A stretch of 64,000 nucleotides of DNA, from assembly GCA_016194455.1 (NCBI GenBank), contig JACQBN010000018.1, positions 10,669-74,668 on the forward strand, given 5' to 3'. Made by a program: the position numbers and the translations under genes. Source of the stretch: Candidatus Kaiserbacteria bacterium. Its GTDB lineage: Bacteria; Patescibacteriota; Minisyncoccia; Phycocordibacterales; Phycocordibacteraceae. Position 1 is the first letter of the stretch; each line of letters opens with the position of its first letter. The notes under the pieces are model-generated. The model was not told the DNA's origin. It worked only from the letters and a program-made list of their open reading frames with translations, and ran no database searches. Below are positions 38,460-53,049 of the stretch, piece by piece.

Positions 38460-39104
38460 ATGCTGATCGCTCTCACCATCGTCGTGCTCATCTTCTCGAT
38501 TATCGCGCACGAGGTCGCGCACGGCTACGCCGCTGATGCGCTCGGGGACCCGACCGCGCGGCTTGCGGGGCGTCTCACCCTCAACCCGCTGCCGCACCTC
38601 GACTTGATGGGCTCTATCCTTATCCCCGCGCTTCTCATCTTCTCGGGCTCGCCGATCCTCTTCGGCTGGGCGAAGCCGGTGCCCTACAATCCGTTTAATC
38701 TGCGTGGCCCTTGGGGCTTGCCTGCGCAGGCAGGCGAATTCCTCGTCGCGATCGCGGGCGCCGCGACTAACATCGTGCTGGCGATTATTTTCGGCCTCAT
38801 CGCCCGCTGGGCCGGCGGGGCGGGGCTCCCCGCAAGCGCCGTAGCGCTCGCAGGCACCATCGCGTTCGTGAATCTCTTCTTGGGGATGTTCAACCTCATT
38901 CCGTTCCCTCCCTTGGACGGCTTCACCGCACTCCGCTCCGCGCTCCCCTGGGATATCTCCGCCCGCTTCGTCCGCTTTGAAGCCCGGGTCCGCGCTTCGG
39001 GCTCCCTCGCGCTCATCCTCTTCCTGCTCGTCTTCTCCTACGTCCTTGCCAACCCCTTTTTTAATTTGGTCTCCTGGACCTTCCGCCTCATCGTGGGCAG
39101 CTAA
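38460..39104 (+). CDS. site-2 protease family (peptidase M50) membrane metalloprotease
   Basis: HEVAHGYAA HExxH in first TM, polytopic, LDG motif. Confidence 0.7.
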   Translation: MLIALTIVVLIFSIIAHEVAHGYAADALGDPTARLAGRLTLNPLPHLDLMGSILIPALLIFSGSPILFGWAKPVPYNPFNLRGPWGLPAQAGEFLVAIAGAATNIVLAIIFGLIARWAGGAGLPASAVALAGTIAFVNLFLGMFNLIPFPPLDGFTALRSALPWDISARFVRFEARVRASGSLALILFLLVFSYVLANPFFNLVSWTFRLIVGS

Positions 39105-39127
39105 CCTAGAAAAACGATTCGGCAGAT

Positions 39128-39553
39128 CTAGCCGGTGCGTTTGGGGGCGAAGCGGCCGCCGAGGACGATGGCGAGCGTGACGACGCTGTAGATGATGCCG
39201 AGGAGGCGCGCGGCGCCCTCGCGCGAGAGCTCGGTGCCCACCGGCATCGGGATCGGGAAGACGAAGACGAGGAGGGCGGCGGCAATCGGGACGAAGTAAT
39301 AGCTAAACTTAAGCCACCTCTTGAACTCTGTTTCGCTTGCGAAAAAGAGGACAGCCGCGACCAGCGCGAGCCACTCGCCAATGGAGAGAAGAGGCAGGCC
39401 AACATTCACACCAGTATCAACTTGGCAGATCCAAGAGACATTGTCCGCGCCACGACAAAGTCCATATGGTAAGGGGTTGGCGAAAAAAGTGCCGACAAAA
39501 TAAAAAACTGCGGCGATAAGAAGGAGTGAGAGTTTTAGATAGATATTCTTCAT
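39128..39553 (-). CDS. hypothetical polytopic membrane protein
   Basis: 4 hydrophobic segments. No motif. Confidence 0.45.
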   Translation of the reverse strand: MKNIYLKLSLLLIAAVFYFVGTFFANPLPYGLCRGADNVSWICQVDTGVNVGLPLLSIGEWLALVAAVLFFASETEFKRWLKFSYYFVPIAAALLVFVFPIPMPVGTELSREGAARLLGIIYSVVTLAIVLGGRFAPKRTG

Positions 39554-42450
39554 GGGCTGAGCAGACCCACTAGTTGTAGCATGAAGAGGGCCTGCGCTTG
39601 TGTGATCTGCTTGCCCGACTGTGCGTTAATCAAGCTCTGCAGATTGCTCAAGGCGCCCCGGAGCACTTCCTTTTTGCTGCCAAGATTCGCCTCCACTTTG
39701 TCGAGCGCCTTGCTGAGATCGGTTTTGACCCCCTGCGCTGCGCCTAGCGTATTGATATACGAGCGCAGGTAGGCAATCAGCTGGGTCGGCGAGAGTACGG
39801 GAGCTCCTGGGGTGTAGGTGAAGTCGCTTGAACCGTTGCCGTCTTCGTCTACCGAAACCGCACCCACGGTGCCGTTACTGACCGAGAACGTAGCGGTGGT
39901 GGAGGCGATAAGCGGAATATTGCGGAAGGAGACGGTCGTGCTCGCCGAGCCGTCGGCCTGTTCCGCGCCAACGTTCAAGGTCGCGTAGCCGCCGGCGTAG
40001 GCCTGCATCGAGATCGTGTAGCTCCCGCCGGCGGGCAGATAGAGATACTCCTCGTCGCCGAAGGTCTGCACCGAGCTGCCCGGTACGTCCTCAAGGAGAC
40101 CGGTAAAGTCGGTCCCGGGCATCGGTAGAATCCCCGTTCTGTTCCCGCTCGCGTCAGTTGCGACAATGTTCACGGGCGAGCGGGTACTGATTATGGTAAT
40201 TGGATTTAATCCGCCTGGCGGTCTAGTCGATGAAATAAATGACCCGAGAGAATTTTTGCCTTCAAGAATAGATTCGACGATGTTTTGAATTGGAGAGGCA
40301 GCGGTCAAGTTTTGATGAACAATATTTTTTCTAGTCGCGTGGAAAAACGCTGAAGTGTCAAAATAAGCTTTACCTGCAGTATCCCCAAGCGCGCTGGCGT
40401 CGATGACGGTGTCGTCGCCGTCCTGCGTGTTGACCGGGGCGTGCTCGAGCACTTGCCTCACGCCGCACGAGAAGACGCCGGAGACCGAATCGCAGGAATA
40501 TTTCGTGCCGGTGGTGTAGGCGAGGGTCTTGAGCGTCTTCTGCCCCCAACCGGCGATGGCGGTCACCGCGATGCCTGACGGCGGCGTCCAGGCGTCGAGC
40601 TGCGCGTGGGTCGCCTGGGCCTTTTGCAGCAGCGTGGGCGAGAGAGCGAGAGGCGTCGTGAGCGCGCCCGGATCGCCCACCGTTGCATCAAGATGAGCGG
40701 GGTCGCTTAAGAAGTTCGCGAGCGCGCTGTAGTTGGTGGTTGTTGCGCCGTAACTCTCCGCGTACTTCCCCGCGAGCGAGGTCGCGTCGAAGGTGGCGAC
40801 CGGGTCGGCAATGCGAGCGAAGTACGCGGGCGCCGGTAAGAGGCCGAAGGCGCCCGGCATCGTGCTCGCGACGGCGCGCGCAGCCGTTTGATTGATAATG
40901 AGACTCGGAATATCGGCGAAGTTGTCGGCGTGGAGGAGCGCGCCAATGCTCGAAGGCGTGCCGTATTGCGGCGTGCCGATCATGATGATGCGGTCGATAT
41001 ACTTGGGCGCGTCCGCCCCGAGCGTGATTGCAAGCGCCTTGGCGAGGAGGCCGCCGTTACTGTGCGCGACGATAGTCACCTTGCCGGTGGCCGAGTTGGA
41101 CGCCATCTGCTTCAAGACATCCGCGAGATAGACGCGCGTTATCGAGCCGTCGGGCTGTTCCGTCAGCGTGCCGTTCTGCACAATGTCGAAGACGTCGTAG
41201 CGCCAGTCGTAGGGGTACGCGCGCCACTCCTTGATCGTGCCGGTGGCGACAAGGCCGTCCATAAACTGCTCGAAGGTGCCGTACACCTCGAGCGTGTCGA
41301 AGAGGCCGGCAATGGTACTCGCGCTCCGGTTATGCGCCTGGATTGAGTCCACGATATCTTTTGTGTAAATCTGGGCCTTGCTCGAGCCGTCGGCGTTGAG
41401 CGCAAGCGGCGGGAGATCGGTGGAGAGCGTGGGCTCCCAGAGCTGGTGCTCATTGCCAAGCAAGGTATCACGCGTGTATAAACGGCTTCCTTCAATCCCA
41501 GGCAGGAAGAGGACGCTGGAAACCTTTGGCGCTCCACAGCCGCTCGCGAAGGAGTCGCAGGCGAGGAAGGGAAGGACCGACACCATCGTTGGTTCGTTGA
41601 AGCCGACATTCACAAGGCCGTTCGGGTTCAGCGCCGCCCAATACGGGCCCGACGCGTCGCCCCACCAGTTGTTCTCCATATGGACGGAGAAGGTGCCGAG
41701 ATAGTAATCGAGCGCCGCACCGCGCAGGCCGTCTATGCTGCTTTGGTGCATGAGCAGTGTTGTGGGGGAGGGGCTGCTGCTCGTCCACAAGCGGGCTATG
41801 TAGTTCTCGCCTTGGAAGAGATCGTTCTCGAGATCGAGGAGGCCTTGTGAGCCCATATAGACCTGATAGCCAGGAACGTTTTCAAAAACGCTGTCGGCTA
41901 TAAGCACCCGTGCGCCCGTGAGTACATAGACATTGCCGACATATCCGCCAGAGCTTTGTACTGAAAGGAGGGTGGAGTTTGCATCGCCGGCCACTCCCGC
42001 GTAGCGGAAGCGGATATGCTCGAGCGTGCTCGTGGCGTCCGTACCGGCAAACTGGATTGCGCCCCAGCGATTCTGCTCTGGATCCGTGGCAGTGCCGTCG
42101 CCGTTCGTGTCGCCGCCCACGCTGTCGTCGGCGATGGAGGTGAAGACGACGGTGCTTGAATCGGAGGTGCTCCCGGCATTGAGAGTGCCGTTTACTTCAA
42201 TGGCAGCCTCGCCGAAGGGGTTGTTAAAAAACTTGACGACCACGCCCGGATCAATGGTGAGCGTAGCGCCCGGACTAATCGTAAGCGGCTCCAACACCTC
42301 AATCGGACTCCCGGCAGTCGTCCACTCGGTGTCGGCACTGACGACGACCGGGGCGACGGTCGCCGCCTCCGCGCTCTGCGCGGAGGCGGCGACACCAACG
42401 CACAAAATGGAGCACAAAAGAAAAAGCGTGCGAGCGCGCATCGGGCACAT
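39550..42450 (-). CDS. giant secreted protein: N-terminal beta-helix-like domain + alpha/beta-hydrolase (lipase/esterase, GHSxG) domain
   Basis: Track ORF 39550..42738 trimmed to signal peptide M(CP)MRARTLFLLCSILCVGVAASAQSAEA. Gly/Thr/Asp-rich repeats typical of right-handed beta-helix. VLFLPGIEGSRLY plus nucleophile elbow GHSNGGLLAKA. Confidence 0.7.
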   Translation of the reverse strand: MCPMRARTLFLLCSILCVGVAASAQSAEAATVAPVVVSADTEWTTAGSPIEVLEPLTISPGATLTIDPGVVVKFFNNPFGEAAIEVNGTLNAGSTSDSSTVVFTSIADDSVGGDTNGDGTATDPEQNRWGAIQFAGTDATSTLEHIRFRYAGVAGDANSTLLSVQSSGGYVGNVYVLTGARVLIADSVFENVPGYQVYMGSQGLLDLENDLFQGENYIARLWTSSSPSPTTLLMHQSSIDGLRGAALDYYLGTFSVHMENNWWGDASGPYWAALNPNGLVNVGFNEPTMVSVLPFLACDSFASGCGAPKVSSVLFLPGIEGSRLYTRDTLLGNEHQLWEPTLSTDLPPLALNADGSSKAQIYTKDIVDSIQAHNRSASTIAGLFDTLEVYGTFEQFMDGLVATGTIKEWRAYPYDWRYDVFDIVQNGTLTEQPDGSITRVYLADVLKQMASNSATGKVTIVAHSNGGLLAKALAITLGADAPKYIDRIIMIGTPQYGTPSSIGALLHADNFADIPSLIINQTAARAVASTMPGAFGLLPAPAYFARIADPVATFDATSLAGKYAESYGATTTNYSALANFLSDPAHLDATVGDPGALTTPLALSPTLLQKAQATHAQLDAWTPPSGIAVTAIAGWGQKTLKTLAYTTGTKYSCDSVSGVFSCGVRQVLEHAPVNTQDGDDTVIDASALGDTAGKAYFDTSAFFHATRKNIVHQNLTAASPIQNIVESILEGKNSLGSFISSTRPPGGLNPITIISTRSPVNIVATDASGNRTGILPMPGTDFTGLLEDVPGSSVQTFGDEEYLYLPAGGSYTISMQAYAGGYATLNVGAEQADGSASTTVSFRNIPLIASTTATFSVSNGTVGAVSVDEDGNGSSDFTYTPGAPVLSPTQLIAYLRSYINTLGAAQGVKTDLSKALDKVEANLGSKKEVLRGALSNLQSLINAQSGKQITQAQALFMLQLVGLLSP

Positions 42451-42456
42451 GATACT

Positions 42457-42885
42457 ATGATGCTGATGGAATACCAGGTTCCGCAGTTCATCGAGGTCGA
42501 GGACAAGATCGTCGGCCCACTTACCCTGCGGCAGTTCATCTACCTCGCGGGCGCGGGCGGGCTCTGCGTCATTTTCTTCTTCCTCCTGCCCCTTATTTTC
42601 GCTCTTATCCTCTCGGTTCCAGTCGCTGCGCTCGGGGCTGCGCTTGCCTTCTATCGGGTGAATAGCAAACCATTCATCGAGGTGCTCGAGTCGGCCTTTG
42701 GCTACTACACCTCCTCGCATCTCTTCCTCTGGAAGCATCAGGAGCCGAAGGCCGGCGCCGCAGCGGCGCCGGCCCCAACCACCGCTCCCTTGCCCGCGCG
42801 CGGTACGCCGCGGCTCACGCGCGGCAAGCTCTCGGAGCTCTCCTGGTCGCTCGATGTCAAGAAACCAGAGTCGCTCAAGCCCTGA
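42457..42885 (+). CDS. PrgI-family (VirB3-like) T4SS membrane protein
   Basis: N-terminus MEYQVPQFIEVEDKIVGPLTLRQFIYLAG followed by TM helices is the PrgI family signature. Pro/Ala-rich C-terminus. Confidence 0.6.
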   Translation: MMLMEYQVPQFIEVEDKIVGPLTLRQFIYLAGAGGLCVIFFFLLPLIFALILSVPVAALGAALAFYRVNSKPFIEVLESAFGYYTSSHLFLWKHQEPKAGAAAAPAPTTAPLPARGTPRLTRGKLSELSWSLDVKKPESLKP

Positions 42886-42887
42886 CC

Positions 42888-43544
42888 ATGGCCACCAAAC
42901 CCGCTGGCGCGACGCAGAACTTTGTTCCGATCAAGGAGATCCGGAACGGCATTGTCGTGCTGAAAGACGCCGGCTATCGGGGGATTCTCATTTGTTCTTC
43001 TATCAACTTTGGCCTTAAATCCGCGGATGAGCAGCGCGCGATTACGCTTGGATTCCAGAACTTCCTCAACACGATAGACTTCTCGATCCAGATCGTCGTC
43101 AACTCGCGCCGCATGGATCTGCGGCCCTATCTCGCCCTCCTCGCCGAGAAGGCGCCCGAGCAGCGCACCGAGCTCATGCGCATCCAGCTGCGGGAGTACC
43201 AGGAGTTCATCCGCTCCTTCGCCGAGCAGTCCAACATCATGACGAAATCTTTCTATATCGTCGTACCGTACGCGCCGCGCGTCGAGCTCGGAAAGACCGC
43301 AGCGGGGCTCCTCGGCCGGCGCCAGAACGCATCGGGCGCCGCTGCGGTGGCCGAGAGCTCCTTCGAGGAAGATCGTGCGCAGCTCGAGCAGCGTCTCGCG
43401 CTCGTCTCTGGCGCGCTCTCGGGGACGGGGGTGCGCGCAATCCCGCTTGGGACCGAGGAGATCATCGAGCTCCTCTATCGCTCCTTCAATCCGGGTGAGC
43501 TCGAGAATCCGATCCGCCTTGAATCCTACTATGGCACTTCTTGA
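42888..43544 (+). CDS. VirB4/TraC/PrgJ-like T4SS ATPase, N-terminal domain fragment
   Basis: FVPIKEIRNGIVVLKDAGYRGILICSSINFGLKSADEQ matches VirB4 family N-terminus. Ends 14 nt into the next ORF in another frame. Confidence 0.6.
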   Translation: MATKPAGATQNFVPIKEIRNGIVVLKDAGYRGILICSSINFGLKSADEQRAITLGFQNFLNTIDFSIQIVVNSRRMDLRPYLALLAEKAPEQRTELMRIQLREYQEFIRSFAEQSNIMTKSFYIVVPYAPRVELGKTAAGLLGRRQNASGAAAVAESSFEEDRAQLEQRLALVSGALSGTGVRAIPLGTEEIIELLYRSFNPGELENPIRLESYYGTS

Positions 43545-45348
43545 TTTCATCAACCGCAGGAAGCAAGAGGAGCCGAAGGTCGTTCCGGTCTTGCCGAGAG
43601 ACATTTACAAACAAGGCGCGCTCGACCTCGTCGACACCATCGCGCCCTCCGCGCTTAAGATCGGTGCGCGCGAAATAGAGCTCGGCGAGAAGTTCGTCCG
43701 CTCTTTCTATACTATCTCGTATCCGCGCTTCCTCGCTGACGGCTGGTTCTCGCCCATTGTCAACTTGGACCAAGTGCTTGATATCGCGATCTTCATCCAT
43801 CCCGTCGAGACCGCCTCCGCGCTGCGCGACTTCCAAAAGAAGGTGGCGGAGGTGCAGAGCCAGATCAATGAACGAGAAGCGCGCGGGCTTGTGCGCGATC
43901 CTTTGCTCGATACGGCGTACCAGGATCTCGAGAGCCTGCGCGACAACTTGCAACAGGCGCAGGAGAAACTCTTTGAGGTTGGGCTCTACCTCTCGCTGTA
44001 TGGCGATTCTAAAGAGGCGATAGACAAAATAGAGGGTGACATCCGCGGCATCCTCGATGCGAAGCTCGTCTACACCAAGCCCGCGCTTTTCCAACAAGAA
44101 CAAGGATTCCGTTCCTGTCTCGCGCTCGGCACCGACGAGCTCCTCGTCAATTCAAAGCTGAACTCTTCGCCGCTCTCCTCGATCTTCCCTTTTGTCTCGT
44201 TTGACTTGACCTCCGACCGAGGAATTCTGTACGGGATAAACAGACACAACTCTTCGCTCATCCTCTTCGACCGCTTCTCCCTCGAGAACTATAATTCTGT
44301 CGTCTTCGCGAAGTCGGGCTCGGGGAAGTCCTACGCGACCAAGCTTGAGATCTTGCGCTCGCTGATGTTCGGCACGGATGTCATCGTGATTGACCCTGAG
44401 CGCGAGTACGAGCAGCTCGCGGAGGCGACCGGCGGCCGCTCCTTCCATATCTCGCTCTCAAGCGAGCACCACATCAATCCGTTTGATCTGCCCCCGGTCA
44501 AAGAAGACGAGGACCCGAAGGACATTCTCCGGAGCAACATCATCAATCTCGTCGGTCTCTTCCGCATCATGCTGGGCGGTCTCTCGCCGGAAGAAGACGC
44601 GATTATCGACCGCGCCATCAGCGAGACCTACGCGCTCAAGGACATCACCGGCGACGCCGACTTCACCGGCGCAGAGGTACCTTTGCTCGCCGACTTTGAA
44701 CAAGTGCTCTCGGGGATGGAGGGGAGTGAATCCTTGGTCCAGCGTCTTTCCAAATACACGCAGGGGACGTGGGCGGGCTTTATGAATCAGCCGACCAATA
44801 TTGATATCAACCAGCAGTTCGTCGTCTTCTCCGTGCGCGACATGGAGGATGAGTTGAAGCCGGTCGCGATGTATGTGGTCACGCACTACATCTGGAACGC
44901 CATACGCCATGAGCTCAAGAAGCGTCTCCTCGTGATCGACGAGGCGTGGTGGATGATGAAGAGCGAAGACACCGCTTCCTTCCTCTATTCCGTCGCGAAG
45001 CGCGGAAGAAAGTATTATCTCGGAGTCGCGACCATCACCCAGGACGTTGAAGACTTCCTTAAGAGCCCCTACGGCCGGCCGATCCTCACGAACTCCTCCA
45101 TCCAACTGCTCCTCAAACAGTCGCCGACGACCATTGATCTCCTGCAGCAGACCTTCAATCTCACGGAAGAAGAAAAATACCTGCTGCTTGAGGCAGGAGT
45201 CGGCGAGGGGCTCTTCTTCGCGGGCCTCAAGCACGTCGCGATAAAGATCGAGGCGAGCTACACCGAGGATCAAATCATCACCTCCGACCCGTCCCAGCTC
45301 TTGGCGATAAAGGCGGAGAAGGAGCGCTATGCCTCTCAACAAAAGTAG
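43531..45348 (+). CDS. VirB4/TraC/PrgJ-like T4SS ATPase, C-terminal ATPase domain (frame-shifted relative to N-terminal fragment)
   Basis: Walker A VFAKSGSGKSYATK, Walker B LLVIDEAWWMM, C-terminal ITSDPSQL. Start set at MALLDF overlapping the upstream fragment; the track ORF starts at 43375. Confidence 0.75.
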   Translation: MALLDFINRRKQEEPKVVPVLPRDIYKQGALDLVDTIAPSALKIGAREIELGEKFVRSFYTISYPRFLADGWFSPIVNLDQVLDIAIFIHPVETASALRDFQKKVAEVQSQINEREARGLVRDPLLDTAYQDLESLRDNLQQAQEKLFEVGLYLSLYGDSKEAIDKIEGDIRGILDAKLVYTKPALFQQEQGFRSCLALGTDELLVNSKLNSSPLSSIFPFVSFDLTSDRGILYGINRHNSSLILFDRFSLENYNSVVFAKSGSGKSYATKLEILRSLMFGTDVIVIDPEREYEQLAEATGGRSFHISLSSEHHINPFDLPPVKEDEDPKDILRSNIINLVGLFRIMLGGLSPEEDAIIDRAISETYALKDITGDADFTGAEVPLLADFEQVLSGMEGSESLVQRLSKYTQGTWAGFMNQPTNIDINQQFVVFSVRDMEDELKPVAMYVVTHYIWNAIRHELKKRLLVIDEAWWMMKSEDTASFLYSVAKRGRKYYLGVATITQDVEDFLKSPYGRPILTNSSIQLLLKQSPTTIDLLQQTFNLTEEEKYLLLEAGVGEGLFFAGLKHVAIKIEASYTEDQIITSDPSQLLAIKAEKERYASQQK

Positions 45349-45907
45349 CCCGCGCCCCAAGGTAATGACCTGGAAGAAGGCACTGCCCATTCTTGCTCTC
45401 GCGGGGATTTTCGATGCGATCCGCTTCGCATTTGAACAATTTTGGCTCTTCGGGCCCATTCTCGTCGGCACTGCCACAAACAGTTTCTTTGGTGGTGGGG
45501 CGATCGGAGGTGTGGCGGGAAGCATTGCTGGCAAAACATCTTTTCTCGCGGGCCCCGAGCTTGAGGTTTTCGGCATCGTGATGGCAGCCGTGGTCGGACT
45601 CGCGGGGTGGGGAACAATCGGCTTTTTACTTCTTGTATTCAATCAGCGCTTTTTTAAAGCGAACGCATCAAATACCCTCTGGTTCCTCTCTAGTCTGGTC
45701 GTGAGCGAGATACCGATCGTCGGGAGCGTCCCCGCACTTTTCGCTGCGACCTTCAAGGGCTATCATTCGCAAATAAAAAGAGAAAAAGCGGCGCTGAAGC
45801 GCTGGGAGAAAGAGCGAACCGAGATGCAAAAGAGAAATCGGGACGCGCGGCTCGCCGAGCAGTATGCAGCGGCAGAACAAAATGAGCTGGCAGAGGCGAT
45901 ATACTAG
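45329..45907 (+). CDS. polytopic membrane protein in T4SS-like operon (VirB6/TrbL-role candidate)
   Basis: ~4 TM helices with Gly-rich loop, charged coiled C-terminus. Likely real start MTWKK at ~45365. Confidence 0.45.
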   Translation: MPLNKSSPRPKVMTWKKALPILALAGIFDAIRFAFEQFWLFGPILVGTATNSFFGGGAIGGVAGSIAGKTSFLAGPELEVFGIVMAAVVGLAGWGTIGFLLLVFNQRFFKANASNTLWFLSSLVVSEIPIVGSVPALFAATFKGYHSQIKREKAALKRWEKERTEMQKRNRDARLAEQYAAAEQNELAEAIY

Positions 45908-45911
45908 AAGC

Positions 45912-46907
45912 ATGAGTCTTTGCGCGCAGCTAGCGTTCTTCGCGGCAATTACCGCGGCTCTGCTCCTGCCCGCAAGCGCGCTCGCGCAATCTCTTGTAGT
46001 CCCGTCGGGGCTTACTCTGACAGTCTCCCCGCAGTACCCGACGCCCTACGGGGAAGTCCTTATTACTCCGCTCTCGACGACTTTTGATCTCGTCAACGCC
46101 TCGTACACGCTCTCGGCCAACGGGAACGTCGTTTATCGCGGCAACGCGAAGCCCTTCGCGGTGGCCCTCGGCGCGGCAGGCAGCGTCACGAGCGTGAAGG
46201 CAATGGTCACGGGCAGCGGTGGCAGCGTGAGCCAGAGCATCTCAATCCGCCCGCAGGATGTTGCGCTCGTCGCCGAACCACTCTCGTCAGTCCCGCCGCT
46301 CTACCCGGGCAAGGCGCTCGTTCCGCTTGAGGGGAGCGTGCGGGTCGTCGCGGTTGCGAATTTGCGCTCGAAGGCCGGCAAGCAGGTTGATCCTTCGGCG
46401 CTCTCCTACGACTGGACGCTCGACGGCACCGAGCTCGCGGGCTCCTCCGGCATCGGCAAGAGCTCGATCACCGTCGCTTCGCCGCTCCAGTATCGCGCGG
46501 GCAGAGTCTCGGTCGTCGTGAAGAGCCAGGATGGTGCGCTCGCGAGCGGCGACTTGCTCTCGCTCACGCCCGTAGAGCCCTCGGTGCGTGTCTACGAGGA
46601 CGATCCTCTGCTCGGCGTGCGCTTCGAGCGGGCGCTTGCGGGCTCCTACGCGCTTGCAGGAGCAGAGACCACCCTCTATGCGGTCCCGTACTCCTTCCCG
46701 CTTGCGCTCGGCGCGCCCGTCCTCCACTGGTTCCTCAACGGCAGCGCAGCGCAGACCGGCGACTTCGTTACGCTGCGGCCCACGGGGAGCGGAGGAGGGA
46801 GCGCAAATGTCTCCCTGACCGCTACTGCGGGGGACTTCGCGCGCGCGAGCGCTGTGCTCTCGCTTACCTTCAACGCAAACGCGAGCGCTACTCTCTTCGG
46901 ACTATGA
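45912..46907 (+). CDS. secreted protein in T4SS-like operon
   Basis: Signal peptide MSLCAQLAFFAAITAALLLPASALA^QS. Beta-rich. Start placed after the upstream stop. Confidence 0.45.
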   Translation: MSLCAQLAFFAAITAALLLPASALAQSLVVPSGLTLTVSPQYPTPYGEVLITPLSTTFDLVNASYTLSANGNVVYRGNAKPFAVALGAAGSVTSVKAMVTGSGGSVSQSISIRPQDVALVAEPLSSVPPLYPGKALVPLEGSVRVVAVANLRSKAGKQVDPSALSYDWTLDGTELAGSSGIGKSSITVASPLQYRAGRVSVVVKSQDGALASGDLLSLTPVEPSVRVYEDDPLLGVRFERALAGSYALAGAETTLYAVPYSFPLALGAPVLHWFLNGSAAQTGDFVTLRPTGSGGGSANVSLTATAGDFARASAVLSLTFNANASATLFGL

Positions 46908-48004
46908 AAAAGATAATTTTCGCGGCCGGATTTATTCTAAGCTTCACGGCATTCGCTCCAGCGGCATTCGCCGAGGGCGATATTGGCCAGGCGGATTGGC
47001 CCTGCTTCGACGCCATCGACCCGACCCAGCCGACAACCTGCGATACTGCAAACGGGTATCACTTCGTTCCGCTTGCGCCCATCCCCGGCCTCACCGCAGA
47101 CCAGAACGGCACCCCATTTATTGGTACGCCGGATCTCCCGAGCTTCTTGAACAACCTGTATCAGTACCTGATCGGGTTTGCGGCTGCGCTCGCGGTGATT
47201 TATGTCATCTGGGGAGGACTAGAAATTTCCACCCAGGACAGCGTGAGCAAGCAGAGCGATGGCCGCAAGCGCATTGAGGGCGCACTCTTCGGCCTCGCGC
47301 TTGTGCTCGCTCCCTATCTCGTCTTCTACGTCATCAACCCCGCGATCGTGAATCTCTCGCTCAATCTCCCCGCGCTCCAGACCCAAGGCGGCACGTTTGG
47401 GACGGGTGTGAACTCCCCGACGCAGTCAACGACAGCGGCAAACGGAGTGACTACGACGGTAACAGGCACGTACCTCCAGACCGCGCACTTCGCCTCAAAC
47501 GACCAAACCAACAACAATAACGCCCGAGACGCCTGGGTAAGCAGCTGTAACTCCTCCGGCGGAGTCGGGTACGCCGCGCAAGACAGTGGGTGCGGATCGA
47601 ACGTTGTCCCTGCCGGAGGAAAAACGACCTGCGTCTCCACAAGCGACGCCATTGCTAAATGCGCAACGTTTTCAAAGTCCGCATATAACTTCGTCAACAT
47701 TGGTGCGGCCTGCAGTGGTGTTATCAGCTGTTTTGCGTCAATCGATTTACAGCCCTTAAACACTGACGCTTCTGCTGTCTCGGGCTTCGTGGGGGCGTGT
47801 TCCTCGGATGGAGGATACGCGTGTATAGCAGCGGGTACTGGTTTAAGCATACCCCACGGTTTGGGCCTCCGAGAGCTGAGCGCGTGCCCGGAGGCAATAA
47901 CGGGGCTAGCAGGAAACGCTAGTGGAAAATGTTACCAAGCCGGTCTCTTCTGCGCCCGGACTCAGGGGGCTAGTCAGTGCGCGGCCAACACTACGTTGCA
48001 TTAA
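46904..48004 (+). CDS. VirB2/TrbC-like pilin-type protein with Cys-rich C-terminal domain
   Basis: Signal peptide, then two hydrophobic helices (LYQYLIGFAAALAVIYVIWGGLEI ... GALFGLALVLAPYLVFYVINP), then ~170-aa domain with ~14 Cys. ATGA overlap upstream. Confidence 0.45.
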   Translation: MKKIIFAAGFILSFTAFAPAAFAEGDIGQADWPCFDAIDPTQPTTCDTANGYHFVPLAPIPGLTADQNGTPFIGTPDLPSFLNNLYQYLIGFAAALAVIYVIWGGLEISTQDSVSKQSDGRKRIEGALFGLALVLAPYLVFYVINPAIVNLSLNLPALQTQGGTFGTGVNSPTQSTTAANGVTTTVTGTYLQTAHFASNDQTNNNNARDAWVSSCNSSGGVGYAAQDSGCGSNVVPAGGKTTCVSTSDAIAKCATFSKSAYNFVNIGAACSGVISCFASIDLQPLNTDASAVSGFVGACSSDGGYACIAAGTGLSIPHGLGLRELSACPEAITGLAGNASGKCYQAGLFCARTQGASQCAANTTLH

Positions 48005-48007
48005 ATT

Positions 48008-49213
48008 ATGCGCCGGACTTTAATCATCATCGCGACAGTGGTAGTCCTCGCTGGGGTTGGGGCGTGGGTGTACTTCTCCTTCTTCGCGGGCTCTGCCGGA
48101 GTCGCGGTCGCTCCGGCGGGGAATGCTGGTTTGCCGATCGCGGGGCAGGGAACTCAAAACGGTTCTGCCCCTTCGGGCGCAACTGCTGGAGCGCCTTCGG
48201 CGCCCGCTGCGCCAGTGAAAGTCTCTCCGCGCCTGGTACAGATTGATAAAGGTCCGGTCGTCCCGGGCGAAGTCGCACGAGATATTAAAATTTCTTCCAC
48301 AACGAATGACGTTGTGGTTTCTTATGTCGAGCGCCAGAGCGGCAACGTCTTCTCCTACTTCGTGAACGCGGGCACGCTCACCCGGACCAGCAACCGCACG
48401 CTTCCGGGCATCGAGGAAGCCTCGTGGCTTCCCGATGCCTCGCTTGCCTTCGTACGCTACCTCTCGGGGACAAACTTCAGCATCACCAACACGTACGCGC
48501 TCCGAGCCGATGGCTCAAGCGGGTTCTTCCTGCCGCAGAATCTCGCCGGAGTCTCGGTCTCTTCAACAACGATTCTCGCGCTTGCCTCGGGCGGTAACGG
48601 CTCCGTAGTCTCTCTGGTAAAGAGCGACGGTACCCGCGCGACCCAGGTCTTCACGACGCCCCTCTCCTCGATCCGTATTTCGTTTGCGGGCAAGAACCAG
48701 TACCTCGTCGTCACCAAGCCCTCCGCGACACTGCCGGGTGATGCGTATCTTGTGGACAGCGCAGGACACTTCTCGCGCGTCGCGGGGCCGCTCTCGGGCC
48801 TCGTCGCGCTCGCGAGTCCTTCAGGCACATGGGCGCTCGTGAGCTCGGCTGCAAACGGCACCATGCGTCTTGAGCTGGTGAACGCTTTGACCGGCTCGGC
48901 GCTGCCGCTCCCGGTCGCGACCATCGCGGATAAGTGCGCTTGGGCTCTTGATGAATCCGCGGTCTACTGCGGCGTGCCAATCTCGCCGAGTGCGGCATAC
49001 TCCTACCCCGACGACTGGTATCAGGGCGCTGCGCATTTCTCTGATCGGATCTGGAAAATAGAAGTCACTGGGCGCTATGCCGAGCTCGTGCTTGATTTCA
49101 ATAAAGAAACGAAAGGGCTCTTGGACGCAGAGGCGCTCGCGCTTGACCCGCAGCGCTCCGCGCTCGCGTTTCTCAACAAAAACGACGGCTCGCTCTGGTC
49201 GTATCAGCTCTGA
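48008..49213 (+). CDS. N-terminally TM-anchored extracytoplasmic protein in T4SS-like operon
   Basis: MRRTLIIIATVVVLAGVGAWVYFSFF anchor, then Ser/Thr/Gly-rich beta region. Confidence 0.45.
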   Translation: MRRTLIIIATVVVLAGVGAWVYFSFFAGSAGVAVAPAGNAGLPIAGQGTQNGSAPSGATAGAPSAPAAPVKVSPRLVQIDKGPVVPGEVARDIKISSTTNDVVVSYVERQSGNVFSYFVNAGTLTRTSNRTLPGIEEASWLPDASLAFVRYLSGTNFSITNTYALRADGSSGFFLPQNLAGVSVSSTTILALASGGNGSVVSLVKSDGTRATQVFTTPLSSIRISFAGKNQYLVVTKPSATLPGDAYLVDSAGHFSRVAGPLSGLVALASPSGTWALVSSAANGTMRLELVNALTGSALPLPVATIADKCAWALDESAVYCGVPISPSAAYSYPDDWYQGAAHFSDRIWKIEVTGRYAELVLDFNKETKGLLDAEALALDPQRSALAFLNKNDGSLWSYQL

Positions 49214-49929
49214 GGCCGAAGTGCGCGGCGCACATACCATTCCTGCAAGGCACCGGCGAGGTTCGTGGTAATGAAGTAGAGCGCGATGGCGCTCGAGGTC
49301 GTGTAGGAGATCACACCGATAAGAACAGGGAAGACGAACCGCATCTGCATCCCCATCACTCTCTGGACATCGCCTTGCATGCCAGTCCCGAGAGCGGGCT
49401 TCATCGTGCCCGAGAGCGCGAGGTGCGCCTGGAGAAATTGAGAGGCTCCGGAGAGTGCGGCCAGTACGATTGACTTACCGGCGACCGAGATGAGTCCCAG
49501 AAAGAGGAGAGAGATGTGCTGTGGCACGGGCGTGAAGGCGTAGAGCCGCGCGGTATCAATCGAAGAAAACGGCTCGTAGCGAAAGACCCAGTAGAGCGCG
49601 AGGAGCACCGGAATCTGGATGAAGACGGTCAGGATGCTCGCGAAAGGATTCACCCGCCGCTCGCGATAGAGTGCGAGCGTCTCAAGCGCTTCTTTTTCTT
49701 TGTCGCCCTTATGTTTCTCTTTGAGTTCCTTCACGTGCGGCTCAAGGTCTTTCATCGCGCGCTGGGTCCGCGCTGCCGAAAGCGAAAAAGGAAGGAGGAG
49801 GAGGCGAATGGCAACGGTGAGGAGGATGACCGCGACGCCGACGTCCCCGCCCGGGACGAGGGCGACGAGGGCGACGAGCGCGTTATAGAGCGGATTGTAG
49901 AACGCCGCGTGGAAGAGGGTACTGATCAC
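49204..49929 (-). CDS. yidC: membrane protein insertase YidC (short form)
   Basis: 5-TM 60-kDa-IMP core. Conserved synteny rpmH-rnpA-yidC. Confidence 0.8.
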   Translation of the reverse strand: MISTLFHAAFYNPLYNALVALVALVPGGDVGVAVILLTVAIRLLLLPFSLSAARTQRAMKDLEPHVKELKEKHKGDKEKEALETLALYRERRVNPFASILTVFIQIPVLLALYWVFRYEPFSSIDTARLYAFTPVPQHISLLFLGLISVAGKSIVLAALSGASQFLQAHLALSGTMKPALGTGMQGDVQRVMGMQMRFVFPVLIGVISYTTSSAIALYFITTNLAGALQEWYVRRALRPQS

Positions 49930-49938
49930 GGCTACAGT

Positions 49939-50262
49939 CTACGATTTTCCGATGATTTTAGAAAGAAGGCTCGCCAGCTCCGCTTTGATTTCCTCGGACG
50001 AGAGTGCGAGGGTAGAAACTTTTGGGAAAACAATGAGCGCGGGCGGCAGAGGGAGCGCGCGAAGCACCGAAAGAACGCGACGCTTGAGGCGGTGGCGCGT
50101 GACCGAGAACCGTGCGACCTTTTTAGGGATGACTACTGCATAGCCGTGGAGATTGCCGGCCGGAACAACGAGTGAGAAGTGCGCCGAGGATGCTCGACGG
50201 CCGCTCGCGGCTATTGCAGAGGAAAAACCGCTTCTCGCAAGGCGCTGAGAGCGCGGAAACAT
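49939..50262 (-). CDS. rnpA: ribonuclease P protein component
   Basis: RLKRRVLSVLR-type basic RnpA motif, 107 aa, immediately downstream of rpmH. Confidence 0.75.
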   Translation of the reverse strand: MFPRSQRLARSGFSSAIAASGRRASSAHFSLVVPAGNLHGYAVVIPKKVARFSVTRHRLKRRVLSVLRALPLPPALIVFPKVSTLALSSEEIKAELASLLSKIIGKS

Positions 50263-50399
50263 CAGTGCGAGAGGCGGGCGCGCCCGACGCGACGGCGCCC
50301 GCGCATGATCTTACGGCCTGAGCTTGTCGACGAGCGCTTGCGGAAGCCATGGGTGCGGGCGCGCTTGCGACGTTTCGGTTGATAGGTTCGTTTTGCCAT
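50262..50399 (-). CDS. rpmH: 50S ribosomal protein L34
   Basis: Not in ORF track. Reverse-complement translation gives [45 protein letters not shown] (45 aa), a textbook L34. Confidence 0.8.
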
Positions 50400-50489
50400 G
50401 GTAAAAAGTTATGCACACCATACTAACAGGTTCTCCCCGAAGCGCCAGGATTTGCAGAATCGGCCCGACGCGTATAATCCCCTCTATCT
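50400..50489 (+). promoter_or_regulatory. rpmH/dnaA divergent promoter region with DnaA-box-like TTATGCACA and TATAAT -10 element
   Basis: TTATGCACA at ~50409-50417 (1 mismatch to TTATCCACA). TTGCAG-N15-TATAAT at ~50452-50478, 11 nt before the dnaA ATG. Confidence 0.3.
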
Positions 50490-51839
50490 ATGGAGAAAGA
50501 GAATCCTCGCGAACTGTGGGAGTACGTGCTCAGCCAGGTGGAACTCTCGATATCCCCCGCGAACTTCAACACCTGGTTTCGCGATAGCCACATCGTCAAG
50601 GTAGAGGAGGGGATCGTGTACGTGGGCGTCCCGAGCCAGTTCTTCAAGGATTGGTACTTGAAGAAGTTCCATACGCTTCTGCTCAAGATCGTCCGCGACG
50701 TTTCCTACGAATTCCGCACCGTGGAATACCTCATCGTGAAGGACGAGCGCCGGAAACCCGCCAAAGAACCTCGGCACGACCGCAACGCTCCGGAATTGCC
50801 GCTCGCGGACTTCTATATCAACAAGAGCGACAATCTGAATCCGCGCTACACCTTCGAGAACTTCGTTATCGGCGCCTTTAACAACCTCGCATGCGTTGCC
50901 GCGCGCGCTGCCCTGGAGCGTCCTGGCATCACCTACAACCCGCTCTTCATCTACGGAGAGACGGGCCGTGGCAAGACGCATCTCATCCAAGCAATCGGCA
51001 ATCAATACAAGAAGCAGTACCCGGGGCGGAAGGTTTTCTATCTCACGTCTGAAAAGTTTGTTGTTGACTATACCGATTCGCTGCAGACGGGGAGCGCCAA
51101 CCGCTTCAAGGACAAGTATCGGCAATACGATTTGTTGATTATGGACGACGTGCAGTTCCTCTCCAAGAAGGAAAAGAGTGAGGAAGAACTCTTTCACCTC
51201 TTCAACACGCTCCACGACACGAACAAACAAATTGTTTTTTCTTCCGATCGGTCCCCTGTGGCGATTCCCGACATCGCAGAGCGGCTGAAGGGTCGCCTCG
51301 CGAGCGGTATGACGGTGGACATCGGGGAGCCTGACCCGGAATCGCGCATGGAGATTATACGTCGCAAAGCGTCGCTTCACGGCATCATCCTCTCGGACGA
51401 GGTTGTGGAGTATGTCGCAGCGAACACGACCGGCTCCATCCGCGAACTCGAGGGAATGGTGAACAGTATTGTTTGTCACGCGCAGGTGAAGGGGGCGGCG
51501 CCCGATATTGCAGAAGTGCGACAGTCGCTCCGCTCTTTCGCGCGACCGCAGAAGACAATCTCGGTGAAGAACGTGGTGGGGAAAGTCGCGGAGTTCTACG
51601 GGATTGAAGAGGAAAGCATCTACGAGAAGACGCGGCGGCGAGAGGTCGTGCGCCCGCGCCAGATCATCATGTATATCCTGCGCGAAGACTTCAGTATTTC
51701 GTATCCGACGATTGGAACGAAGCTCGGAGGGAGAGATCACACAACTGTTATCCACTCTTGTGAGAAGATAAAGCGTGAAGTGGTTGTGGATAACGACTTG
51801 GCGAAGGACATCCAGAGTATCCGCACTTTGTTGGTATAA
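50490..51839 (+). CDS. dnaA: chromosomal replication initiator DnaA
   Basis: GETGRGKTHL Walker A, LIMDDVQFL, C-terminal GGRDHTTVIHSCEKI DNA-binding domain. Confidence 0.95.
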   Translation: MEKENPRELWEYVLSQVELSISPANFNTWFRDSHIVKVEEGIVYVGVPSQFFKDWYLKKFHTLLLKIVRDVSYEFRTVEYLIVKDERRKPAKEPRHDRNAPELPLADFYINKSDNLNPRYTFENFVIGAFNNLACVAARAALERPGITYNPLFIYGETGRGKTHLIQAIGNQYKKQYPGRKVFYLTSEKFVVDYTDSLQTGSANRFKDKYRQYDLLIMDDVQFLSKKEKSEEELFHLFNTLHDTNKQIVFSSDRSPVAIPDIAERLKGRLASGMTVDIGEPDPESRMEIIRRKASLHGIILSDEVVEYVAANTTGSIRELEGMVNSIVCHAQVKGAAPDIAEVRQSLRSFARPQKTISVKNVVGKVAEFYGIEEESIYEKTRRREVVRPRQIIMYILREDFSISYPTIGTKLGGRDHTTVIHSCEKIKREVVVDNDLAKDIQSIRTLLV

Positions 51840-51948
51840 AAAATATGAAATTTTTTCAACATATTTATCAACGAGTAAGAGCTAAAAACCTTAACATTTA
51901 CGTACTTTTTTGCTTTTCCCCACTATCAACCCCTATAATAAGTACTTC
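51840..51948 (+). promoter_or_regulatory. AT-rich dnaA-dnaN spacer (candidate oriC / DNA unwinding element)
   Basis: ~70% AT in a ~62% GC genome. TTATCAAC and CTATCAAC DnaA-box-like repeats. TATAAT 11 nt before the dnaN ATG. Confidence 0.35.
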
Positions 51949-53049
51949 ATGTTTGTTTCTATAAACAGAAAGGTATTTTCTGATGCGGTGTTAATAGCAG
52001 CACGTTTTGCTGAACGTCGGGCGGCAACCCTTCCCGTTCTCTCTTGTCTTCTTTTTGTTGCAAGCGACGAGGGAATCAAGCTCCGCGCGACCAATCTAGA
52101 GACCGCCGTGGACCTTAAGGTTAAGGGGGTGTGTAAAAGTAAGGGAGTCGTCGCAGTTCCCGCCACTGTCCTCCAACAAATCGCCTCGTCGCTTACGGGG
52201 GAAGGAGACATCACTCTCGAACACACTGGGGACACTCTCACTCTTAAAAGCGGGTCAAGTAAAAGTTCACTCAAGACACTCCCTTATGACGATTTTCCTT
52301 CCATCCCGTTCCCCGAGAGTTCTAAGAGCCGCCTTCTACTCTCGGGAATGGTTTTGAAATCCCTTCTCTCCTCTCTTGTGTCGTGTTCCTCTCCCTCTAC
52401 TGTCCGTCCGGAGCTCGCGAGCGTGTATCTTTCTGCTGAGGGAGGGGTATTGACCGCAGTTGCGACCGACTCCTTTCGTCTCGCAGAGAAAAAAATTCCA
52501 CTCCCCGGTCGCGGCACACAAGGGAAGTTGCTGATACCAGCGAAAAATGCTGCCGAGATCGCTCAAGTACTTCCTGACGAGGAAGTTATCGTTTCGTTTG
52601 ATGAACACCAGTGTGCGTTTGTCGGTAGTTACGGTATGTTCGTTACTCGCCTTACTAACGCGACCTTCCCGGACTACCGTCAAATCATCCCGAAGGAGTC
52701 GGTCGCCGAAGCCATCGTACTCCGCAAGGACTTTGAAACCGCACTCCGGAGGACAACCATCTTCGCCGACTCGTTTCAGAAGGTAAAAATCGGCTTTGAG
52801 CCCAAGACAAAGAAACTCTCTCTCTACGCCCGGAACATCGACCTCGGCGAATCCTCCGAGTCCATTCCCGCGCAGGTCTCGGGTAATGCTCTCGAGCTCT
52901 CGTTTAACCACCGCTACCTCTCTGCTTCTCTCTCTCTCGCCCAATCAGAGAGCATCTCGCTCACCGCCGCAGGGGCCGGACGGCCCGTCCTCGTCCGGGG
53001 TGTCGGGGACTCTTCGCTCCTCTATTTGGTCTCACCGATGAACCAGTAG
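51949..53049 (+). CDS. dnaN: DNA polymerase III beta sliding clamp
   Basis: Start trimmed to MFVSINRKVFSDAV. Three-domain beta clamp, directly after dnaA. Confidence 0.9.
   Translation: MFVSINRKVFSDAVLIAARFAERRAATLPVLSCLLFVASDEGIKLRATNLETAVDLKVKGVCKSKGVVAVPATVLQQIASSLTGEGDITLEHTGDTLTLKSGSSKSSLKTLPYDDFPSIPFPESSKSRLLLSGMVLKSLLSSLVSCSSPSTVRPELASVYLSAEGGVLTAVATDSFRLAEKKIPLPGRGTQGKLLIPAKNAAEIAQVLPDEEVIVSFDEHQCAFVGSYGMFVTRLTNATFPDYRQIIPKESVAEAIVLRKDFETALRRTTIFADSFQKVKIGFEPKTKKLSLYARNIDLGESSESIPAQVSGNALELSFNHRYLSASLSLAQSESISLTAAGAGRPVLVRGVGDSSLLYLVSPMNQ

Follow-up and report, generated by a model that had tools for sequence, protein, structure and literature searches.

A putative secreted LCAT/LPLA2-type lipase and its four-helix membrane partner as a candidate cassette for lipid acquisition in Patescibacteria

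Results

The lipase gene, its partner and the divergent operon

We analysed a 64,000-nt window of a Candidatus Kaiserbacteria metagenome-assembled genome (GCA_016194455.1, contig JACQBN010000018.1, positions 10,669-74,668 of the forward strand). A large minus-strand gene in this window encodes a predicted secreted lipase of the LCAT/LPLA2 type. Its stop codon is overlapped by a co-oriented gene for a 141-aa membrane protein, here called TM141, which had been overlooked in a sequence-only reading of the same DNA. On the plus strand, divergent from the lipase gene, lies a type IV secretion system (T4SS)-like operon with genes for a PrgI-family protein (Pfam E 1.8e-12), a VirB4-like ATPase (TraG P-loop, 2.6e-25) and a T4SS-pilin-like protein. 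A 218-aa protein sits between PrgI and VirB4, and its ortholog in L086, a locus of a distant genome, has a TraC-like Pfam match. The coordinates of all features are given in Table 1.

The open reading frame (ORF) of the lipase runs from 42738 to the stop at 39550 and contains in-frame ATGs at 42450 and 42441. The 96 codons further upstream overlap with PrgI on the plus strand and come before the signal peptide, so we took one of these two ATGs as the start. NCBI annotates an identical sequence as the 963-aa form from 42441, under the title 'hypothetical protein HY091_01770 [Candidatus Kaiserbacteria bacterium]'. Lipase residues are counted from ATG 42441 unless the 966-aa numbering is stated.

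Table 1. Features of the lipase-TM141 locus and of the divergent operon start (positions of the 64,000-nt window).
Feature	Coordinates	Strand	Basis and remarks
Lipase coding sequence (LCAT/LPLA2-like, predicted secreted)	39550..42441	-	963 aa plus stop; ATG 42450 would add 3 residues; >1300 homologs
Predicted signal peptide, residues 1-27 (MRAR / hydrophobic core / AEA)	42361..42441	-	Read from sequence; low-confidence N-terminal helix in the AlphaFold2 model
Predicted right-handed parallel beta-helix, residues 28-300; DTNGDG Ca-loop-like motif; variable across the family	41542..42360	-	
Predicted LCAT/LPLA2-type alpha/beta-hydrolase core, residues 301-745; VLFLPGIEGS, PYDWR, AHSNGG, DGDDTV	40207..41541	-	
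Ser461 codon, candidate nucleophile	41059..41061	-	Invariant in 120/120 homologs; corresponds to LCAT Ser181; between E455-460 and H462-481 in the model; codon verified
Asp676 codon, candidate acid, in DGDDTV	40414..40416	-	Invariant in 120/120 homologs; corresponds to LCAT Asp345; codon verified
His709 codon, candidate base, in IVHQNL	40315..40317	-	Invariant in 120/120 homologs; H-x-N-[LM], like LCAT H377-L-N-M; codon verified
Predicted all-beta (sandwich-like) domain, residues 746-880, DEDGNG motif	39802..40206	-	AlphaFold2 strands 748-876, pLDDT >90; family-wide conservation
Predicted C-terminal four-helix bundle, residues 881-963, conserved amphipathic last helix	39553..39801	-	AlphaFold2 helices 885-961; homolog tails
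TM141 partner gene, 141 aa, four predicted transmembrane helices	39128..39553	-	ORF; start ATG overlaps the lipase stop (ATGA)
PrgI-family gene, first of the T4SS-like operon, likeliest start	42466..42885	+	Pfam PrgI; collinearity from 42464-42466; L095 ortholog
Inverted repeat, perfect, 16 bp, 3-nt loop: GTCGCCGCCTCCGCGC TCT GCGCGGAGGCGGCGAC	42359..42393	.	Repeat search

Export signal and domain architecture of the lipase

The N-terminus of the lipase, MRARTLFLLCSILCVGVAASAQSAEA followed by ATV, shows on direct reading, rather than by a dedicated predictor, the n/h/c organisation typical of Sec signal peptides, and a comparable N-terminal hydrophobic segment was present in 97 of 116 full-length homologs. 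This agrees with the canonical signal peptide recognised in the sequence-only reading and suggests that the lipase is exported by Sec to the cell surface or the extracellular space.

An AlphaFold2 (AF2) model of the lipase, built on an alignment of 81 sequences, had a mean predicted local distance difference test (pLDDT) score of 87.7 and was composed of five parts: a signal helix, a solenoid, an alpha/beta-hydrolase with inserted subdomains, an all-beta domain and a four-helix bundle. The solenoid is formed by ~24 short strands in residues 28-300, and this N-domain has the fold of a beta-helix. Both halves of the earlier description, a secreted beta-helix joined to a hydrolase, were supported by the model and by fold comparison. 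The beta-helix region had also been called long and rich in Gly, Thr, Asp and Asn; the fold held, but the enrichment is modest (G 10.6, T 8.8, D 6.2 and N 6.2%). The N-domain is poorly conserved, varies between lineages and is often absent or replaced in homologs. When the domains were searched separately, Pfam returned nothing significant for the N-domain, the beta-sandwich or the C-terminal bundle, and a guess that the bundle is a FIMAH domain was not confirmed by Pfam.

The last helix (39553-39600) carries a conserved amphipathic motif, ...AEIILxMIxxLKxLL in homolog tails and ...AQALFMLQLVGLLSP in the query. Protein P0002 and an ORF at locus L065, as well as contig-edge fragments matching the L065 3' end, terminate in a true transmembrane anchor instead. 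Two motifs of the DxDxDG type were observed, DTNGDG in the beta-helix (42094-42111, residues 114-119) and DEDGNG in the beta-sandwich (39832-39849, residues 868-873), both numbered from ATG 42450. In the 966-aa numbering, D868 and G873 of DEDGNG are conserved in >90% of homologs. These motifs suggest Ca2+ sites.

Enzyme class and candidate catalytic residues

Pfam matched the LCAT family (PF02450) to lipase residues 390-546 (E 6e-10, 39.3 bits versus a cut-off of 21), with the match spanning only positions 66-204 of the 392 in the hidden Markov model (HMM). PGAP1, DUF7379, Tle3, palmitoyl thioesterases and other lipase families gave sub-threshold Pfam matches, and an NCBIfam search with the lipase gave no match. 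For alignment we used the 120 listed of the >1300 homologs, and all 120 have a precomputed PF02450 match. The LCAT-type domain call is not new, since some homologs already carry the NCBI name 'lipase/acyltransferase domain-containing protein'.

PDB sequence searches with the protein and with a family profile gave marginal, generic alpha/beta-hydrolase matches only and did not reach LCAT or LPLA2, so a fold comparison was needed. Foldseek of the AF2 model against the PDB returned LPLA2 or LCAT as the first nine matches (E 2e-9 to 1e-7, target TM-score 0.62-0.69). Tle4, BlEst2 and PlaB followed, and LipA-type lipases were also among the structural matches. The predicted structure therefore has the three-dimensional fold of LPLA2/LCAT. 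Together with the PF02450 match above the cut-off, this bears out the earlier assignment of a lipase/LCAT-like alpha/beta-hydrolase.

We aligned a profile of the catalytic core with a manually entered human LCAT sequence, using hhalign. The probability was 97.1%, and the alignment paired VLFLPG with VILVPG, PYDWR with PYDWR, AHSNG with GHSLG (Ser181) and DGDDTV with DGDDTV (Asp345). The VLFLPGIEGS segment reported earlier is present at residues 313-322 in the 966-aa numbering, while the nucleophile elbow that had been given as GHSNGG actually reads AHSNGG. Ser461 lies at the canonical strand-helix elbow of the AF2 model. A complete Ser-Asp-His set is present, with S461, D676 and H709 (S464, D679 and H712 in the 966-aa numbering) invariant in the 120 homologs, and together with PYDWR these residues take the positions expected for the LCAT family, with the alignment of the His shifted by 5 residues. 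We regard Ser461-Asp676-His709 as the candidate catalytic triad. Collectively, these results suggest that the lipase is a distant bacterial branch of the LCAT/LPLA2 superfamily with a new architecture.

The presence of a beta-helix raises the alternative of a polysaccharide-active enzyme that attacks host wall or capsule polymers, with the beta-helix as a lyase or hydrolase and the alpha/beta-hydrolase as a carbohydrate esterase. The conserved part of the family is, however, the LCAT/LPLA2-like core, with lipid enzymes as its best matches, and Pfam found no lyase or hydrolase signature in the query N-domain. The beta-helix is itself unlikely to be catalytic, because it is poorly conserved and often absent or replaced. 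We consider a role on polysaccharides very improbable.

TM141 and the two-gene cassette

The TM141 start codon and the TGA stop of the lipase share an ATGA, which was verified on the sequence. A single-sequence phmmer search found TM141 relatives directly downstream of the lipase in 47 loci. With an iterated profile, 59 of the 69 loci that have at least 450 nt of downstream sequence had a relative directly downstream in the same orientation, and 3 more had one nearby. TM141 was the only conserved neighbour family of the lipase. In the reverse check from TM141 relatives, the upstream gene was an LCAT gene (L086) or matched the LCAT-like 3' end of L065 only (L081, L082); for the other relatives, the contig was too short upstream to judge. 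No lipase-TM141 fusion was found among the 120 homologs, no paralogs were found within the window, and no C-terminal transmembrane anchor of their own was found in the lipases without an adjacent TM141. Together, the gene overlap and the synteny suggest that the lipase and TM141 form a translationally coupled two-gene cassette.

TM141 proteins are ~140 aa long with four hydrophobic helices. An N-in/C-in topology fits, because the basic residues lie in loop 2 and in the C-terminal tail, and the external loops measure ~25 aa and 14 aa. The first external loop contains two invariant cysteines, C33 and C43, and W80 is almost invariant as well. AF2 predicted four helices (pLDDT 68.7). Homology was difficult to detect: a word-indexed search recovered TM141 itself only and a 44-sequence profile recovered 9 proteins, so that exhaustive HMMER was needed, which gave 1487 representatives at 50% clustering (E <=1e-3). 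The searches run revealed no Pfam family, no structural relative and no likeness to a known immunity family. Identity among relatives is 16-38% for TM141 versus 29-46% for the lipase.

In 13 of 64 loci, TM141 is present in two to four tandem copies, with up to 4 in L029, while the lipase stays single. Diverged tandem arrays beside a single lipase were seen in L008, L009, L013, L015, L017, L023, L029, L036, L039, L051, L073 and L077. Protein P0150 (271 aa) matches the TM141 profile in two stretches, which suggests a tandem TM141 fusion.

This gene arrangement also recalls an antibacterial toxin-immunity pair, which is the main rival to the function proposed below. In such a pair, the phospholipase would lyse or kill host cells or competitors, like Tle4 of the type VI secretion system (T6SS), TM141 would be the membrane immunity protein and lipid nutrition would be a by-product. 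The tight coupling of a small downstream gene, the tandem copies of TM141 beside a single lipase, the faster divergence of TM141 and the fold similarity to Tle4 are all consistent with it. However, the enzyme core shows good conservation and is nearly universal within a class, and is often encoded among housekeeping genes (L28, M50, EF-Tu, SecA), whereas polymorphic toxins usually show a different pattern. In addition, export is by Sec rather than by a contact-dependent system, TM141 is unlike any known immunity family, and an adjacent TM141 is missing from 10 of 69 loci. We therefore judge a toxin-immunity pair to be possible but rather unlikely. This reading and the one proposed below are not fully separate, since every secreted phospholipase requires protection of its own producer.

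IS200-like Y1 transposase genes stand directly beside the cassette in two unrelated loci (L002, 8193-8840; L081, 875-1576) and may be a clue to its mobility. A VirD4-like coupling protein of 916 aa, matching DUF8128 and weakly TraG-D_C/TrwB, was observed 4-9 kb downstream of the cassette in three loci (L081, 5910-6817; L082, 4834-7584; L045, 19485-20963) and was absent from the other 79 LCAT loci.

Linkage of the cassette to T4SS-like operons

We examined genomic linkage from both sides. On the LCAT side, one genome per species was scanned and lipase relatives were found in at least 584 species-representative genomes, nearly all of which bear the titles of Patescibacteria lineages; 80 loci were taken from these. 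This suggests that the cassette is widespread in Paceibacteria-type Patescibacteria. Homologs of PrgI, TraC-like, VirB4, pilin-like and flanking operon genes were found in none of the 80 loci (tblastn; phmmer at E up to 1), 50 of which have >5 kb of sequence upstream of the lipase. The upstream neighbours in closer LCAT relatives were a Vut_1 transporter, an EamA protein, SecA and an IS200-like gene. On the T4SS side, a metagenome scan with VirB4 found at least 534 stretches encoding a relative, and the 80 loci taken from them (73-92% identical) gave no match to HMMs of the LCAT core or of TM141. Locus L086 (JACXTT010000011.1) served as the sensitivity control. The window VirB4 finds the L086 VirB4 at 1037 bits, the window PrgI finds the L086 PrgI at 3e-48, and the LCAT-core and TM141 HMMs reach 434 and 93 bits, respectively, with the genes of L086.

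L086 is also the sole exception found, with the LCAT-TM141 cassette immediately 5' of PrgI. Unlike in the window, the cassette is co-directional with PrgI, and the L086 and window lipases are 32% identical compared to 75% for VirB4. Assuming ~800 genes per genome, a rough estimate rather than a formal test indicates that one extra case in ~95 informative loci is not clearly above chance. The homologs are thus essentially encoded away from T4SS loci, and the functional tie to the operon that had been proposed for the lipase was not borne out on either side.

The T4SS-like operon itself (42466-49213) is very conserved, with VirB4 relatives of up to 92% identity, and yidC, dnaA and dnaN are immediately beside it (49204-53049). 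This places the operon near the likely replication origin of this genome. About 9 kb beyond the operon, at 58184-59863, lies a gene for a type IV pilus-like ATPase of the T2SSE/PilB type that has an MshEN domain.

The M50-PrgI junction and the divergent start region

The 11 nearest relatives of the T4SS-like operon share the order L28(-), M50(+), PrgI(+), TraC-like, VirB4, in which the M50 protease gene directly precedes PrgI. DNA collinearity between the window and these relatives ends at ~39101, at the end of M50, and resumes at 42464-42466, at the start of PrgI. The 3.36 kb separating the collinear blocks corresponds exactly to the oppositely oriented TM141 and lipase genes, so an insertion or deletion (indel) of the cassette at the M50-PrgI junction accounts for the back-to-back layout. 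The adjacency to the T4SS-like operon thus appears to be a lineage-specific indel and not a functional unit. The indel may reflect a gain of the cassette here or a loss in the relatives. No terminal direct or inverted repeats, as expected of a mobile element, were found at the cassette borders. In nine LCAT loci, the lipase, in some cases with TM141, is near M50, L28 and a 236-aa gene without any T4SS. Two syntenies, each conserved on its own, thus come together in the window through a common L28-M50 anchor. The junction is variable in other relatives as well: L095 (4189-6264, compared to 39105-42465 of the window) has a different insert of ~2 kb including a 359-aa ORF, and the M50-PrgI spacing elsewhere is only ~70-600 bp.

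The point at which collinearity resumes, together with the N-terminus of the L095 PrgI ortholog (MEYQVPQF), places the PrgI start at 42466. The gap to the lipase start is then 24 bp from the annotated 42441 or 15 bp from 42450. The start codons had been reported to be <10 bp apart, which holds for the longest possible ORFs alone (42450 versus 42457, 6 bp between) and not for the likely starts.

The divergent start region at 42448-42462 is a 15-bp near-palindrome, CATGATACTATGATG, in which 12 of 15 positions are self-complementary when read by eye, with ATGs on both strands and TANNNT-like hexamers. This layout is compatible with leaderless or overlapping divergent promoters. The perfect inverted repeat of Table 1 falls within the part of the lipase gene that encodes the signal peptide, at a distance of 72 nt upstream of PrgI, and neither strand has a T-run after it. 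The fold z of the 5' 121 nt of the lipase mRNA is -3.34. The repeat could be an operator or an mRNA element. A consensus scan of 38900-43000 found no sigma-70-like promoter.

These data allow the proposal that the lipase serves the neighbouring T4SS-like apparatus as effector or accessory, and is co-regulated with it through overlapping divergent promoters, to be weighed. With only 15-24 bp between the divergent starts, promoter elements must overlap coding sequence; this, the palindrome within the lipase gene and the second genome with a cassette immediately 5' of PrgI (L086) would fit such a link. Conserved genomic linkage was, however, not found. T4SS genes are missing from all 80 homolog loci, the cassette is missing from all 80 closely related operons, M50 takes its place before PrgI in the 11 nearest relatives, and L086 differs in orientation and has a lipase far less similar than its VirB4. 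T4SS substrates are cytoplasmic and are recognised by the secretion ATPases without a Sec leader, with known exceptions in diderms, whereas the Sec-type signal of the lipase is conserved in the family. In a monoderm, a cleavable Sec signal would make T4SS translocation unnecessary and argues against translocation by a cytoplasm-fed apparatus. The scan for sigma-70-like promoters gives the proposed co-regulation no support either. The effector reading appears to be largely refuted by synteny, and we regard it as highly unlikely.

Discussion

A proposed role in lipid acquisition

Genomes of the candidate phyla radiation (CPR) lack complete fatty-acid and lipid synthesis, and CPR membranes are enriched in lysolipids, which can be produced by phospholipase A (PMC7242380). 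Lipidomics points to lysolipids taken from neighbouring cells (PMC7242380), and the phylum has no known mechanism of taking up or breaking down lipids (PMC11665869). An earlier proposal is that phospholipases, as a general class, damage host envelopes in Patescibacteria. Our literature search found no paper linking CPR and LCAT.

We propose, with roughly even confidence, that the cassette encodes a Sec-exported surface or extracellular LCAT/LPLA2 lipase/acyltransferase together with TM141, that it acts on the lipids of foreign cells, and that its adjacency to the T4SS-like operon is incidental. The variable beta-helix ahead of the enzyme core probably targets the enzyme to a foreign cell surface, and the beta-helix and beta-sandwich would together provide surface targeting. 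The likeliest job of the enzyme would be to cleave off or transfer the acyl chains of glycerophospholipids in a host cell or a neighbour. The fatty acids and lysolipids released could supply a bacterium that is unable to make its own lipids. TM141 may shield the producer's own membrane, as an immunity protein would, or tether the enzyme. Acyl transfer or hydrolysis fits these bacteria because they lack lipid synthesis, are rich in lysolipids and have no known uptake mechanism.

Several points weigh against this proposal. hhalign did not place His709 on LCAT His377 but 5 residues off, in a low-confidence stretch. An adjacent TM141 is missing from 10 of 69 loci, and the L086 cassette next to PrgI leaves room for a weak link to the T4SS-like operon. 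The role given to TM141 is purely conjectural, and its tandem duplications would suit an immunity array at least as well as an anchor. Finally, the lipid auxotrophy of this genome is assumed from its phylum, with 64 kb of the genome seen.

The same lysolipid enrichment of CPR membranes (PMC7242380) could also reflect an enzyme that remodels the producer's own envelope, acting on membrane lipids (e.g. to lysolipids), lipoproteins or lipid-anchored polymers, with TM141 as a docking or substrate-presenting subunit. Weak Pfam matches below the cut-off to PGAP1, DUF7379 and palmitoyl thioesterases are consistent with this, as is the strict co-expression with a membrane protein of the producing cell that gene overlap and synteny indicate. 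In contrast, a large, variable beta-helix of the adhesin, tailspike or lyase type suggests recognition of an external surface, and the N-domain differs from lineage to lineage as expected for host-specific targeting. Remodelling of the producer's own envelope therefore seems quite improbable.

A bolder form of our proposal is that the cassette is the lipid-acquisition machinery so far missing for Paceibacteria. The extracellular transacylase/phospholipase would remove acyl chains or lysolipids from the membrane of the host, and TM141 would receive these or insert them in the symbiont bilayer, or would gate the enzyme to foreign membranes. We put this forward tentatively and consider it unlikely as it stands. 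If true, it would explain how fatty-acid auxotrophs get lipids and why their membranes are lysolipid-rich.

The T4SS-like system of CPR bacteria is essential. The annotation of the lipase as a T4SS effector is unsupported, and the lipase should not count as evidence on the role of that system. What is new here is the lipase-TM141 cassette and its architecture, as a testable candidate for CPR lipid acquisition. A predicted Sec-secreted LCAT/LPLA2-type enzyme in hundreds of species, together with an uncharacterised membrane family, makes that candidate concrete and clonable.

Comparison with known systems

Members of the LCAT/LPLA2 family act at membrane or lipoprotein surfaces as phospholipases A or transacylases. 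The lipase shares with LCAT/LPLA2 (PLA2G15, PF02450) the Pfam match, the PYDWR, xHSxG and DGDDTV motifs and the Ser/Asp/His set, but the sequence identity is just 14-18%. It is bacterial and predicted to be Sec-secreted, its core lies between a beta-helix and a beta-sandwich plus helical bundle, and it has 963 aa compared to roughly 400 in LCAT/LPLA2. It is also genetically coupled to a partner with four transmembrane helices, which the eukaryotic enzymes do not have.

The Tle4-Tli4 pair of the Pseudomonas aeruginosa T6SS (PDB 4r1d) likewise has a lipase gene beside a small cognate protein, and the lipase is similar to the effector in fold. We take this pair as a model for a lipase with a protective partner and do not claim membership of the Tle4 family. 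Tle4 is delivered by the T6SS in diderms, whereas the lipase has a Sec signal peptide. No T6SS gene was present among the annotated neighbours, where T6SS genes were not explicitly searched, and no immunity protein homologous to Tli4 was found. Tli4, the crystallised binding partner of the effector, is a soluble periplasmic protein. TM141 has four transmembrane helices and no detectable similarity to any family.

In the LipA-Lif/LipB operons of Pseudomonas, Burkholderia and Acinetobacter (PDB 2es4, 9g8u), a secreted lipase gene is also followed by a gene for a membrane-anchored partner, which has no sequence similarity to TM141. External loops of only ~25 aa and 14 aa are too short for TM141 to wrap a lipase. 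Lif has roughly 340 aa, with one transmembrane anchor and a large periplasmic helical chaperone domain.

Staphylococcus aureus, which also makes its own fatty acids, secretes lipases (Geh and others) of a different family and without a transmembrane partner. They offer a functional analogy for lipid scavenging by a secreted lipase, as they reportedly release host fatty acids for incorporation (PMC10327171).

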